NCBI GenBank assembly: GCA_016188865.1
Contig: JACPGX010000001.1
Span: 77,197-141,196, forward strand
DNA length: 64,000 nt
Source: Candidatus Nealsonbacteria bacterium
GTDB taxonomy: Bacteria > Patescibacteriota > Minisyncoccia > Minisyncoccales > MHMH01
Direction of reading: 5' to 3'
A program made the position numbers and the translations under genes. Shown one piece after another: positions 10,146-19,386 of the stretch (the stretch's first letter is position 1; the number at the start of each line of letters is the position of its first letter). Under the pieces are notes generated by a model, which saw only the letters and a list, made by a program, of their open reading frames with translations, did no database searches and was not told the origin of the DNA.

Positions 10146-10868
10146 TTATTCTATGGCTACTTCTTTATAATCTGCTAATTCTTTTTTATGCTGCAGCCAA
10201 TCGTTAACAAATCTTTTAGCCTCTCTTATCTCACCGATTGTTTCTAATAAAAATTCCCTGCTGGTAACCGATGGAAAATTCTTATTTCCTAAATAATCCG
10301 GATAGCTCGACCAGCGATATTGTTCTTCAAGGAATTGTATTACTTTATTTAAATCTTTAATTTTAATTCCTTCTTCTTTCCATTTTGGACAAATAATCGC
10401 TACCGGATTGGTGTGAATATAAACGAAAACCGTTAATAACTGCCTATCATCTTTAACGTGAACAATCCTATATTTTCCTTGAAACAAATGCCCGCTTCTT
10501 TGATATTTCTTATTATAATAACCGCCGTATCCCGCACCGATTTTTCGCATAAATTTACTAATTCCGCCATCTTTGAGCTGTCTCACTAATAAATGCACAT
10601 GATTAGGCATTAAACAAAACGCCAAAATCTCAACTAAAAGCTTCCTCGGCTCTCTCCTTTCCCGCGGTAATGAGTCGAGAACCGTTCTCGACCTATTTAC
10701 GGTATTCCTGAAAGACGATAATACTGAAACTTCGTTATTAAACTCGAATAAATCATGGACCATTCGAAAATTATCTTTCTCCTCTCGAAAAAGTTTTAAA
10801 CCTTCTATGGCGCGGATAACTATATGGTATATTTCTCCGTTAGATAATGGCGGACGTTTTATCGGCAT
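10146..10868 (-). CDS. IS200/IS605-type Y1 HUH transposase-like protein (RAYT-like)
   Basis: YHIVIRA, HUH motif LMPNHVHLLV, catalytic-Tyr region VYIHTNPV. I prefer the ATG at 10868 (MPIKRPP), because the track start at 10898 reads through a REP copy. Confidence 0.7.
   Translation of the reverse strand: MPIKRPPLSNGEIYHIVIRAIEGLKLFREEKDNFRMVHDLFEFNNEVSVLSSFRNTVNRSRTVLDSLPRERREPRKLLVEILAFCLMPNHVHLLVRQLKDGGISKFMRKIGAGYGGYYNKKYQRSGHLFQGKYRIVHVKDDRQLLTVFVYIHTNPVAIICPKWKEEGIKIKDLNKVIQFLEEQYRWSSYPDYLGNKNFPSVTSREFLLETIGEIREAKRFVNDWLQHKKELADYKEVAIE
10672..10698. repeat. REP family 1 copy inside the RAYT-like CDS
   Basis: GAGTCGAGAACCGTTCTCGACCTATTT is the exact reverse complement of the 10872-10896 core. 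It is translated in frame as NRSRTVLDS. Confidence 0.8.
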
Positions 10869-10871
10869 AAT

Positions 10872-10898
10872 ATAGGTCGAGAACGGTTCTCGACTCAT
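10872..10898. repeat. REP family 1 copy, 5' flank of the RAYT-like gene
   Basis: ATAGGTCGAGAACGGTTCTCGACTCAT, in opposite orientation (GG centre) to the 3' flank copy. Confidence 0.85.
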
Positions 10899-14609: not shown

Positions 14610-14729
14610 GCTTTGGTGGCAGCTACCTACTTTCGCCCATAAAGGACTATCATCGGCCTTAAGCTATTTCACTTCCGTGTTCGAAATGGGAACGGGTGGG
14701 ACAAGCTCAGTATAGCCGCCACCAAAACG
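14610..14729 (-). rRNA. rrf: 5S rRNA
   Basis: The reverse complement reads ...GGUGGCGGCUAUACUGAGC...CCCACCCGUUCCCAUUUCGAACACGGAAGUGAAA...GUAGGUAGCUGCCACC. Ends are +/- 5 nt. Confidence 0.9.
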
Positions 14730-14732
14730 CCT

Positions 14733-14767
14733 AATAACGCAATCAATAATTGCCAGCTAATTTGTAG
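14733..14767 (-). other. 3' strand of the 23S processing stem
   Basis: AATAACGCAATCAATAATTGCCAGCTAATTTGTAG is complementary, with a few mismatches, to 19210-19242. Confidence 0.7.
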
Positions 14768-15029
14768 ATAAAAAGCTTTACCTATTAGTACTCCTCGGCT
14801 TAACCCATTGCTGGGCTTACACCTAGAGCCTATCAACCCTGTCATCTACAGGGGGTTAATGAATCCTAATCTTGGGGTGGGCTTCGAGCTTAGATGCTTT
14901 CAGCTCTTATCCCTTCCCGACTTAGCTACCCAGCAATGCTCCTGGCGGAACAGCTGGTACACCAGAGGTCAGTTCCTCGAGGTCCTCTCGTACTGTCGAG
15001 GACTCCCCTCAAGATTCGACGCCTGCGGT

Positions 15030-15060
<31 letters not shown>

Positions 15061-15141
15061 GAACCCAGCTCACGTACCTCTTTAACATCGAGGTGCCGAA
15101 CAGGGCCGTTGATATGGACTCGCGGGCCCTACTAGCCTGTT

Positions 15142-16024
15142 CATAGTTAATTTTAGTTAACCATAGACTATATCTTCACCCGCCTAAATATAAATTTTTG
15201 GCGGGGGCGGCGTATGAACTAAATTTTAATTTTAGTTCTCACCCATTTAAGGGATCAGTCGTTACGGGGTCAAGAAGAAATTTTATAATTAAATGTTGGC
15301 AGAATAAATGATCGTATTGTTTGGTGCAACTTAATGGTTTCTTTTGGCGAAAAATAAAGAGCGAATCCTTTTTGTTTTTTATCTAATATTCTGCACAAAA
15401 CATGAAAATTATTTTCAATTGCTGTTTTGGCAATTTCGGCCTCTTTTTCTTGAACTCTCCCTAAATATAGATAGCTTACTTTATCGCGATGATAATAATA
15501 GCCATCATCCATATACCAAACGGCTAAAGCTAAAGAATCTTTTAAGAGATTGCTAAGCTGTTCTGGTATGCGTTTTTTTCCTTCTTTGTAAAATATTGCT
15601 CGCCATTTTCCCAATTCCGGAGTGGAATTGGACTGGTGGCGCCAATATTTATATAACTTGCCGCTTATGGGATGTTTTCGTTCAAGATATTTTGGCTCGC
15701 CTTGGAATAATTTTGGAAATTTGTTTATTTTCCAGAAAAGATAATCTTTTTGATTATCGCCATGTTCAAAACGCAAACGTGAATTTTTCTCTCCAGTTTT
15801 CTGCAAATAAGCATCTCCCAAAATTGTTCCTATAAGAATTGATTTTTGCTCTCTATTAAACTTCACAAATTTTTCTTCTGACTTCCCACGGTGTTGAAAG
15901 AACTCAAAACCTTTTTGTCAAAGGAAGACCAGTTCTTGTTTCACCGTTATAAGCCACTTTAAACTATATCTTATTACTAAGACATAGAGACAACAACCTC
16001 TGTGATTATTATATCACGAGGTTC
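15142..16024 (-). mobile_element. group I intron at 23S position equivalent to E. coli 2449
   Basis: The exons read CCGGGGAU | AACAGGCU. The 5' exon ends in U and the intron ends in G. Core elements include GAAGAUAUAGUC (S-like). Contains a homing endonuclease ORF. Confidence 0.8.
15270..15866 (-). CDS. LAGLIDADG homing endonuclease, two-motif (monomeric type)
   Basis: Motifs LIGTILGDAYL and LAVWYMDDGYY. GTG start. Intron-encoded. Confidence 0.85.
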   Translation of the reverse strand: MKFNREQKSILIGTILGDAYLQKTGEKNSRLRFEHGDNQKDYLFWKINKFPKLFQGEPKYLERKHPISGKLYKYWRHQSNSTPELGKWRAIFYKEGKKRIPEQLSNLLKDSLALAVWYMDDGYYYHRDKVSYLYLGRVQEKEAEIAKTAIENNFHVLCRILDKKQKGFALYFSPKETIKLHQTIRSFILPTFNYKISS

Positions 16025-16532
16025 ATCCCCGGGGTAACTTTTGGTTGATGATCTTCTGCGGTTCTACGAACCACAGTCGGTTCACTAAGTTCGAGTTTCC
16101 TCTCTGCGCGGCATATCCGCCTTGCAGTCAAGCCGGCTTGCGCCTTTACGCTATCAGTCCGATTTCCATCCGGACCTAGCCGACCTTATAAACTTCTCCG
16201 TTACTTTTTAGGAGAAAAGCGCCCCACTTAAACTGCCCACCAGACACTGTCTCCCCTTGCGGGGGTTAGGATGATGGATTCAAAAGACGGGTGTTTCATT
16301 GTTGGCTCCATGCCTCCCGAAAGAAGCACTTCAAAGCCTACCCGCTACACTACGCATTCAAAACCAAAATTCAATATCTAGCTACAGTAAAGCTCCCGGG
16401 GTCTTTCCGTCTAGCCGCAGGTAACCGGCATCTTTACCGGTATTGCATTTTCACCGGGCAACTCCTGGAGACAGTTCCCAAGTCGTTAAACCTTTCATGC
16501 GGGCCAGAACTTACCTGGCAAGGGGTTACGCT

Positions 16533-17249
16533 CAATCTGTTATATCCACAATACATTTGTGGAATTCTTTATGTCGCCATAAAGTTCGGACTATATCTTC
16601 CCGCCCAAATATTCAATTTTCGGCGGGTTCGGCGTATAGTCTCTGAGGATTCTTTAATTTATCGGAATTTTCTATTATTCATCTCTCTCACCATCAATCT
16701 TATTTTAGCCAATCCTTCCTCTCGGAGATGTCTTCCTTTTCCCATCATTTTTACAATTTTAGTAAAAATATGGAAATCTTTTTTCTTGGCAGATAATAAT
16801 TGATATTTTTCGAAAAATGGAATAATTTTCGTGAGTAAATCTACACGATTACGTACTACGTATTTTAGAAGATGTTCGTGATGGTTATCGTGTCTTTTAT
16901 TCAGATAGATTGCTCCGCAATTAAAGAAATTTTTAATTTTCTCTATTGCGGCTTTACTTTTCATTTCTTGCGTAATTACAAACTCTGGAAATACTTGCCA
17001 TTTTAGGCGCAATCTTGATTTGGGATGTTTAAAGAAACTTACAGTAAAACATCCTTCTCCATCAACAAACCCAACTATCCATCCAATAAATTTAAGCCTT
17101 TCCTGCTGATTGTCTGCACCGGATGATTTTTTACTTAACATAATGGATGGTAAGGTATATTACTACCTTACTCTATTATATCAAAGTAGCACCGGATACA
17201 CCAGATTTTCCAGCATATAGCCGAATTTTACTAAAGCAGTGCGTTATCT
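16533..17249 (-). mobile_element. group I intron at 23S position equivalent to E. coli 1931
   Basis: The exons read ...UAACUAUAACUGUGUUAAAGU | AGCGUAACCCCUUGCC. The intron ends in G. Core elements are CAGAGACUAUACGCC (R-like) and GGGAAGAUAUAGUCCGAAC (S). Confidence 0.8.
16659..17141 (-). CDS. LAGLIDADG homing endonuclease, single-motif (homodimer type)
   Basis: Motif WIVGFVDGEGCF. 160 aa. Intron-encoded. Confidence 0.85.
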   Translation of the reverse strand: MLSKKSSGADNQQERLKFIGWIVGFVDGEGCFTVSFFKHPKSRLRLKWQVFPEFVITQEMKSKAAIEKIKNFFNCGAIYLNKRHDNHHEHLLKYVVRNRVDLLTKIIPFFEKYQLLSAKKKDFHIFTKIVKMMGKGRHLREEGLAKIRLMVREMNNRKFR

Positions 17250-19209
17250 ACTTTAACACAGTTATAGTTACTGCGGACGTTCACTGGCGCTTAGGACGCT
17301 CAGCTCACACCTTGCGGCATGAACCGGCATCTTTAACGTTCCAGCACTGGTCAGGTTTCGGCCCCTATACATCCTCTTGCGAGTTGAGCAGGGACCTGTG
17401 TTTTTGATAAACAGTCGCTTGGGATACTTTTGTTGCAGCCTCAAATCCTTGCGGACTGAGGCAGGCCTTATCGCGAACTTACGGCCACTTTTTTGCCGAG
17501 TTCCTTCAGGAGCTTTCACCCGTTCACCTTGGCGCATTTACGCCTGCCTACCTGTGTCGGTTTGCGGTACGGAACCAGTTAAATAGTATACTTAAAACTT
17601 TTCTTGGCAATCTTATTTTTAAGACTTCCGCTTGCGCGGAATAAAAATCCAATAATTTTCTCAAAAATTTTGACTGCGTCATCTTAAGATTATTTAACCG
17701 GTGGGCCGGAATATTAACCGGCTATCCATCTCTCGCTACCATTGGTAACAAAATTAGGACCGCCTAACCCTTGGCTGAATGTCATTGCCAAGGAAACCTC
17801 AGGCTTACGGTGTCCCGCGCTTTCAGCGGGATTGTGGTTACTCAAGCCAATATTCTCACTTCATAACGCTCCATGGTTGGTCACCCTTCCACTTCACAGC
17901 ATTATGAACGCTCCCCTACCCCGAGCATTCAATAAATTGAATACTCAGTCTTATCTTCGGTGCTGAGCTTAGTCCCGTATATCTTCGACGCGGGATCCCT
18001 TAGTTAGTAAGCTATTACGCACTTTTTAAAGGATAGCTGCTTCTAAGCTAACCTCCTAACTATCAAAGGAACCCCACTTCCTTGTAAACACTTAGCTCAT
18101 CTTAGGGACCTTAGATTAAGATCTGGGCTGTTTCCCTCATGACCTCGAAGCTTAGCCCTCGAAGTCTTACTATCCGCCTAAATTTTCTGGCATTCGGAGT
18201 TTAGTAGGAATACCTGGAGAAACTCCAAGATATTCCTTCTAGTGCTCTACCTCCAAAAAATAATGATGGCGGACGCTAGCCCTAAAGCTATTTCGGGGAG
18301 AACCAGCTATTACCAAGCTCGTTTAGGTTTTCTCTTCTTACCACAACTCATCCAAGAGTATTGCACGGCTCACTGGTTCGGACCTCCCCTCGCATTTCTG
18401 CGAAGTTCATCCTGGTTATGGTAAGCTCGCTTGGCTTCGGGTCTTACGCGCGCTCCTAATCGGGCTATTAACCCTTGCTTTCACTTTGCCTTCCTCCGTT
18501 TAACGGAGTTAGACTTGGAGCACACATAAACTCGTTGGCTCGTTCTGCAAAAAGCACGACGTCACCCTAAACCCTTGCGGGTCGCGGGCTCCGTCTCGTT
18601 GTGGGTAAAACGGTTTCAGGTTCTATTTCACCGCCCTTAACGGGCTACTTTTCACCTTTCCCTCACGGTACTGGTTCACTATCGGAGATATCGTAGTATT
18701 TAGCCTTGGCCGAGTAGTTCGGCCGGATTCCTTCAAAGCTTTCGTGCTTCGAAGTACTTAAGAAAAGTATCAAGGAGCATAAAGCCGTTTTCGCTTACGG
18801 GACTATTACCCTCTATGGTTGTCCTTTCCAGGAACATTCAACTAACGAAGCTTCACCTAAATGTTCTCCCTCCGGATTGCTCCGGACAATACTCCCTTGC
18901 AACACCACTCAATGCTTCTTGCGAAGCATAAAATGGTTTAGGCTGTTGCCCTTTCGCTCGCCGCTACTAAGGCAATAAAATTATTTTTCTTTTCCTCTGG
19001 GTACTATGATGTTTCGCTTCCCCAGGTTCGCCCCAGATACAATACTGCATCTGGCGGCCGAGTTTTAGCTCGGCCCTGTTTCCAGATTCGGAAATTCCCG
19101 GATCAAAGGTTGAGAGTCACCTCCCCGAGACTTATCGCAGACTCCCCACGTCCTTCATCGCCTCGATATCCCAAGGCATCCACCGTTTACCCTTAAATGC
19201 AATTTTTAC

Positions 19210-19242
19210 CTACATTAGCTAGCAATTAATAATTGCGTTATT
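19210..19242 (-). other. 5' strand of the 23S processing stem
   Basis: CTACATTAGCTAGCAATTAATAATTGCGTTATT pairs with 14733-14767. Confidence 0.7.
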
Positions 19243-19386
19243 AATTGTTATATTCAATTTTTAATGTCCATCATAATAAAAATAAAAAACCGCTTGCGAA
19301 GCGGTTCCACAAGGTAAAATAAAGCCCCTGGAGTCACCCGCTTCTTTTGTAAGTAATGGTTTTTATATTTATCATGGTCAAGTCCA

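Follow-up and report, generated by a model that had tools for sequence, protein, structure and literature searches.

A 55-nucleotide gap in the peptidyl-transferase region of a Candidatus Nealsonbacteria 23S rRNA gene is probably an assembly artefact

The minus-strand 23S rRNA gene on the stretch of Candidatus Nealsonbacteria DNA analysed here (64,000 nt in full length; hereafter the window) lacks 55 nt corresponding to Escherichia coli positions 2507–2561 (blastn against E. coli rrlH), and its domain V core is therefore incomplete in the region of helices H90, H91 and H92 (the last with the A loop and G2553). The gap is probably an artefact of assembly or scaffolding rather than a property of the organism's working ribosome, and we infer that the loss arose in silico or in library preparation, not in cells. 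We favour this explanation because the locus is syntenic with that of relatives and the gene is otherwise pristine, the relatives keep the block and show covariation in it, the half-helix orphaned by the gap is unchanged, and the junction occurs in no other data set searched. An earlier sequence-only reading of this DNA had offered three explanations (an assembly artefact, an inactivated rRNA copy, and a fragmented or trans-supplied rRNA); the first is the one that our results favour, albeit indirectly, and the other two are weighed below together with further alternatives.

The junction and its flanks

Relatives for comparison were found through MreC homologues, a 90% cluster of the endonuclease encoded in one of the introns and spurious ORFs translated from rRNA, and four different related 23S genes were recovered as DNA (approximately 81–90% rRNA identity; Table 1). 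By blastn, E. coli positions 2450–2506 correspond to window positions 15141..15085 and E. coli positions 2562–2782 to 15085..14866; a single T is ambiguous at the breakpoint, so the junction was placed at 15085/15084. Alignment of 15160..14767 to the Rfam LSU_rRNA_bacteria covariance model gave the same picture, with 15 residues standing for 71 model positions at the junction and both flanks aligned with high posterior probability. In the alignment to the closest relative (L020), bases 3528–3581/2 of that genome are without a counterpart in the window, which corresponds to the same breakpoints. The sequence-only reading had reported the loss of about 55 nt at about 15084/15085 between flanks that aligned well; the covariance model upholds this gap, which is therefore not a product of misalignment. 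The window contains no Ns, and thus no visibly marked gap at the junction.

On the basis of the structure line of the model projected onto E. coli, the lost block consists of the 5′ strand of H90 (2507–2517), the whole of H91 (2520–2545) and the whole of H92 with the A loop (2547–2561), in agreement with the earlier proposal that H90–H92, including the A-loop residue G2553, are affected. The 3′ strand of H90 is retained, and its pairing partner falls inside the missing block. The stretch that contains this orphaned strand is identical between the window and L020 over 34 nt, and the strand itself (window sequence GAGGTACGTGAGCTGG) fits the H90 5′ strand of L020 (...CATCTC). With half of H90 left unpaired, the loss did not cleanly excise a structural module.

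On the other side of the junction, the exon stretch that carries H89 retains A2451, C2452, A2503, U2504 and G2505, and is 81% identical to E. coli, 94.7% to L020 and 98% to L030. The window has a strain-specific H89 sequence (GGGCCCGCGAGTCCATATCAACGGCCC) and a strain-specific marker for H89 or intron 2 (GTTAACTAAAATTAACTATGAACAGGCTAGTAGGGCCC). After H89, the deleted form continues as CACCTCGATGTTAAAGAGG (also tagged by GATGTTAAAGAGG), whereas an intact form would read GATGTCGGCTC.

Table 1. Features of the 23S–5S locus, with the related and deletion-bearing records used for comparison (positions are those of the window unless a contig is named; Ec, E. coli numbering).
Feature	Position or record	Strand	Evidence and remarks
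23S rRNA gene	14765..19210	-	Rfam RF02541, 1964.9 bits (threshold 50), model positions 1–2925
5S rRNA gene	14614..14723	-	directly downstream of the 23S gene; Rfam RF00001, 79.1 bits
23S processing stem, 5′ leader strand	19198..19267	-	pairs with trailer at approximately 14720..14777
23S processing stem, 3′ trailer strand	14720..14777	-	RNAduplex with leader
Probable group I intron, site L1931	16533..17249	-	717 nt, after U1931; boundary ambiguous by 2 nt; last base G
LAGLIDADG endonuclease of L1931 intron	16659..17141	-	160 aa; Pfam PF00961 LAGLIDADG_1, E=1.4e-24
Probable group I intron, site L2449	15142..16024	-	883 nt, after U2449; 5′ exon ends in U, intron ends in G
LAGLIDADG endonuclease of L2449 intron	15270..15866	-	198 aa; Pfam PF03161 LAGLIDADG_2, E=1e-34
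Exon stretch Ec 2450–2506	15085..15141	-	H89 and central-loop strand CACCUCGAUGU; intact
Deletion junction	15084..15085	-	Ec U2506 (or U2562) abuts Ec 2562/2563; covariance-model alignment, blastn, relatives' alignments
Orphaned H90 3′ strand	15065..15080	-	Ec 2567–2582, GAGGUACGUGAGCUGG; Rfam model structure line on E. coli
Relative L020	GCA_030648455.1		order RNase H, 23S, 5S, mreC, PBP2, greA as in window; intron L2593 only
Relatives L025, L027	ENA		L2449 intron as in window, endonuclease approximately 92% identical (182/198 aa); introns L2449 and L2593
Relatives L029–L031	ENA		23S–mreC–PBP2 order as in window; intron L2500 with LAGLIDADG_2 ORF
30-nt deletion, contig L013	3433–3491		
30-nt deletion, contig L015	747–805		
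30-nt deletion, contig L018	3594–3652		
30-nt deletion, contig L019	739–797		

Condition of the gene and its introns

The deletion is the sole lesion of the window 23S gene. We checked functional bases at 2058–2062, the P loop (2251–2253), 2447–2453, 2503–2505, 2583–2585, 2600–2603 and the sarcin–ricin loop, and all of the 29 other positions examined in the PTC, the P loop, 2058–2062 and the sarcin–ricin loop match E. coli or L020. In a relative-rate test of the spliced genes with E. coli as the outgroup, lineage-specific changes numbered 118 in the window and 99 in L020, a difference that is not significant (chi-square approximately 1.7). An old pseudogene is disfavoured both by the lack of a rate excess and by the intact functional sites. 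The gene is 4446 nt long, compared with the 2925 positions of the model, and comprises three exon blocks and two introns. The sequence-only reading had described it as an intron-bearing 23S gene accompanied by a 5S gene and a processing stem, and each of these elements was recovered: two ORF-bearing insertions, an RF00001 5S match and a leader–trailer duplex of −54.7 kcal/mol (RNAduplex), the leader of which is 93.6% conserved in L020.

Several further observations concern the surroundings of the gap. The exon sequence around H71 (17248–17270 and 16500–16532, minus strand) departs from E. coli at usually conserved positions (AACUAUAACUGUGUUAAAGUAG / CGUAACCCCUUG in the window versus ...GGUCCUAAGGUAG / CGAAAUUCCUUG in E. 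coli); these changes are mostly common to L030 and are therefore lineage traits, not damage. The arrangement RNase H–23S–5S–mreC is also found in L020. No 16S rRNA gene or tRNA gene is present in the 64-kb window, and the 23S–5S pair is unlinked from 16S. An ORF for an IS200-like Y1 transposase (250 aa; 10146–10898, minus strand; PF01797, E=2.3e-11) lies between greA and the next genes, approximately 4 kb downstream of the rRNA locus. A match to the c-di-GMP-II riboswitch within a 23S exon was dismissed as due to chance (E=0.065).

The insertion at L2449 is missing from L020 and L030 at exactly that point, and the insertion at L1931 is missing from L020, L027 and L030; the insertion boundaries were taken from the alignments to L020 and L030. 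Matches to Intron_gpI (RF00028) were located at the 3′ ends of both insertions, each below the 50-bit threshold (16567–16716, 34.7 bits, E=1.3e-6; 15143–15258, 22.7 bits, E=0.005). The omega intron of yeast mitochondria, which encodes I-SceI, likewise sits at L2449. The window resembles other intron-bearing rRNA genes of the CPR/Patescibacteria in that its insertions, at U1931 and U2449, obey group I rules and carry LAGLIDADG ORFs, but introns add sequence that is spliced out and cannot account for 55 lost exon bases. Across this small clade, probable group I introns were observed at four 23S sites (L1931, L2449, L2500 and L2593) in a combination that differs per genome, and three of the four sites cluster in a 150-nt stretch of domain V (positions in relatives: L020, 3616–3921; L025 and L027, after CAAACCGTC; L030, 808–1606). 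Imprecise loss of an L2500 intron was ruled out as the cause of the gap, given that the window retains E. coli positions 2501–2506.

The exact protein sequence of the L2449 endonuclease was found on Logan contigs from five samples. One such contig, L012 (five samples), is 100% identical to the window over 16054..15112, a span made up of intron 2 (the insertion at L2449) and exactly 30 nt of flanking exon at either end; the contig stops 27 nt short of the junction. These ends lie at k−1 of a 31-mer graph past both intron boundaries, which points to an allele without intron 2 but with identical exon 30-mers that probably co-occurs in at least five samples.

The proposal that the window carries an inactivated rrl copy, with a second and intact 23S gene elsewhere in the genome, can draw on this second allele and its common exon 30-mers, as well as on the lack of linkage between 16S and the 23S locus. 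However, synteny with relatives marks the locus as ancestral, the substitution counts (118 versus 99) show no acceleration, the other functional bases are intact and no other damage accompanies the gap. Both endonuclease ORFs are likewise intact, with strong Pfam matches, and if the enzymes are active, homing biology predicts that an intron-less copy within that cell would be converted; furthermore, a repeated gene of 3–4 kb is rarely crossed by short-read contigs. No second 23S copy was found in the 64-kb window. An inactivated copy thus appears improbable.

The block in relatives and in other assemblies

All four relatives recovered as DNA keep the block, each reading CACCTCGATGT-CGGCTCA...GGCTGTTCGCC..-TTAAAG, and P0101, a relative known only as a protein-level assembly, also encodes it; the loss is therefore not common to related genomes. 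The inner pairs of H90 covary among the relatives (TC/GA, GC/GC and TT/AA; AC/GT in E. coli), as do the closing pairs of H92, indicating that these helices are under selection in the clade. Among the best-scoring 120 database ORFs, the A-loop stretch is encoded by every rRNA-frame ORF that has the downstream anchor motif (119/119). A protein-database search with two frames of a hypothetical repaired allele returned no same-species allele; the matches were to other species only (≤90% identity), all with the block.

This conservation bears directly on the idea of a genuine evolved reduction, in which a ribosome lacking H91, H92 and the H90 5′ strand would still function. Reduction of CPR ribosomes is well documented, but the known losses concern surface helices and never the catalytic core (PMC9297842). 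The survey of CPR rRNAs by Tsurumaki et al. (2022, RNA 28:1041) reports losses of H9, H63, H78 and others and never mentions H90–H92, and the published helix gaps run throughout the CPR or whole sub-lineages (PMC9297842). The window shares with these cases the bacterial group and a 23S stretch that is missing relative to E. coli; it differs in that its loss lies in the catalytic core, is confined to a single assembly and, unlike a clean module removal, leaves one strand of a helix without its partner. Given also that close relatives keep and covary the helices and that the A-loop stretch is encoded by all 119 anchor-bearing ORFs among the best-scoring 120, we find an evolved reduction scarcely credible.

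The sequence-only reading had also raised the possibility of a fragmented rRNA, in which a different locus would provide H90–H92 in trans and that piece would pair with the 3′ strand of H90 kept by the gene. This strand shows perfect conservation, and its pairing with a second RNA molecule that carries the 5′ strand is conceivable. Searches of the 64-kb window with the missing block as it reads in E. coli and in L020 (blastn-short and an nhmmer profile) returned chance matches only, the best being 12 nt by blastn-short and E=2.7 by nhmmer; neither the missing segment nor a second rrl was thus found in the window, and the gene is contiguous in all relatives. The scrambled rRNAs of organelles (Chlamydomonas and apicomplexan mitochondria) offer a likeness, in that a contiguous gene is without a segment that the ribosome needs. 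There, the pieces are known and lie at other loci, whereas no piece was found in the window and the relatives are contiguous. We know of no bacterial precedent for such an arrangement. Surveys of CPR rRNA report losses of surface helices only (PMC9297842). A trans-supplied piece seems to us very improbable.

We scanned two large sequence collections for the pattern CACCTCGATGT, 0–30 bases, TAAAGNGGTACGNGAGCTGGGTT. The window junction was absent both from 185,579 species-representative genomes, in which the scan gave two contigs, and from 241 million JGI metagenome records, in which it gave seven. All nine contigs have partial deletions within E. coli positions 2507–2561 and come from taxa unrelated to the window. 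In one of them (L010; MAG UBA1423), 'NN' at 254–255 stands for approximately 46 nt of H90–H92 and represents an under-sized scaffold gap. Four metagenome contigs of different taxa carry an identical 30-nt deletion (GATGT/CCCAAGGG; E. coli 2507–2536; Table 1), which takes out the H90 5′ strand and half of H91; such recurrent breakpoints in unrelated organisms suggest a systematic process, technical or biological, at the H90–H92 spot. In another two (L016, 11071–11120; L011, 516–564), a perfect A-loop hairpin (TTGGCTGTTCGCCAA and CGGCTGTTCGCCGG, respectively) lies between GATGT and TAAAG, with the H90 5′ strand and H91 lost; one contig belongs to a 'Rickettsiales' MAG. These two may be artefacts or genuinely reduced rRNAs.

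Origin and meaning of the junction

In runs between SRR12113383 and SRR12113431, Logan contigs match the flanking genes and the L2449 endonuclease with 100% nucleotide identity. Run SRR12113421 belongs to the agricultural groundwater data from Modesto, California, of He et al. (2021; PMC7906910), a study in which each filter was assembled separately using MEGAHIT 1.2.9 with IDBA-UD scaffolding (PMC7906910). The Logan contigs flanking the operon all end at or just inside the rRNA genes, and exact look-ups (flanking proteins, intron endonuclease and two spurious ORFs) yielded no independent same-species contig that crosses the junction, either with or without the block; the two spurious ORFs, which lie in or beside the junction, returned no record. 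With introns at L2449, L2500 and L2593 in relatives, the assembly graph is rich in junctions and varies between strains over the 150 bases that surround the deletion.

Under the artefact explanation, the locus would be the single syntenic rrl–rrf of a strain-variable Candidatus Nealsonbacteria population with mobile group I introns, and short-read assembly (MEGAHIT plus IDBA-UD) would have lost its ultra-conserved H90–H92 block. This may have happened through a contig join or a collapsed gap, or through a few chimeric or deleted reads that were followed through a tangled assembly graph. For the real gene, the predicted sequence is ...CACCUCGAUGU, then approximately 55 nt resembling CGGCUCAUCUCAUCCUGGCGGUGGAGAAGCUGCCAAGGGUCCGGCUGUUCGCCGG, then UUAAAGAGGUACG.... 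Collapsed or under-sized scaffold gaps in the rRNA genes of MAGs provide a parallel: L010 has its 'NN' at the same spot, the eight other contigs have partial deletions, and assemblies of the source reads fragment around the window locus. The window differs from that parallel in that its junction is without Ns and a contig join is here only supposed.

The A-loop residue G2553 pairs with C75 of the A-site tRNA, and H90–H92 are, to our knowledge, universal and kept even in the most reduced ribosomes; a sole rrl without them should therefore be lethal. De Bruijn assemblers do not invent k-mers, and the microhomology flanking the block amounts to only 1–2 nt (GT/T in L020), which rules out pure graph collapse on a flanking repeat as the sole cause. 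Given that a graph assembler needs the junction k-mers and that the microhomology is so short, either some reads carry the junction (chimeric or real), or scaffolding or curation made it. Further points also weigh against an artefact: at k=141, the strain-specific intron 2, which is only 57 nt from the junction, should anchor the correct path given adequate coverage, the window is free of Ns, and no independent contig of the species was found across the junction.

The requirement for junction-spanning k-mers, by which at least some reads may carry the junction, also suits a deletion that is real in the DNA but confined to a null allele, that is, a recent mutation in some or most molecules of the population, or relic DNA. 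Translation would then depend on intact alleles carried by other cells, or on a further copy of the gene. A candidate cause is a double-strand break made by a homing endonuclease at L2500 or L2593, followed by end joining at the 1–2 nt of microhomology: the L2500 introns of relatives, which encode endonucleases, lie 6 nt away from the left breakpoint, other introns of relatives, at L2593, lie 32 nt away from the right one, and GT/T microhomology surrounds the block in L020. The intron-less allele suggested for the same samples and the absence of decay elsewhere in the gene, which fits a very recent event, are in keeping with such an allele. However, CPR genomes normally have a single rRNA operon, and in this canonical syntenic rrl the loss would kill the cell, so that such an allele should not become abundant enough to be assembled. 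The contig that runs through the locus is 271 kb long, which speaks against another near-identical copy in this genome, and the junction appears in no other data set. We regard a null allele as the main rival, possible but unlikely, and the artefact remains our preferred explanation.

It is highly unlikely that the deletion is real and fixed in the only 23S gene of the population, with the H90 5′ strand, H91 and the A loop provided by a separate small RNA that pairs with 15065..15080, or with a ribosome that does without the A loop. A real and functional deletion would overturn the universality of the ribosomal A loop, and a separate small RNA, if involved, would give the first known bacterial example of a split catalytic-centre rRNA. 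A biological reading of the deletion is unlikely, and the practical value of the finding is as a quality flag on the rrl of the deposited genome until the reads are checked: without read-level checking, the window 23S gene should not serve as a reference in work on rRNA structure, in phylogeny or in probe design. More broadly, the H90–H92 stretch looks like a recurrent site of deletions or collapsed gaps in metagenome assemblies, with nine other contigs in two large collections. The locus also illustrates the abundance and variability of introns in 23S domain V within this clade, where insertions occur at L1931, L2449, L2500 and L2593.
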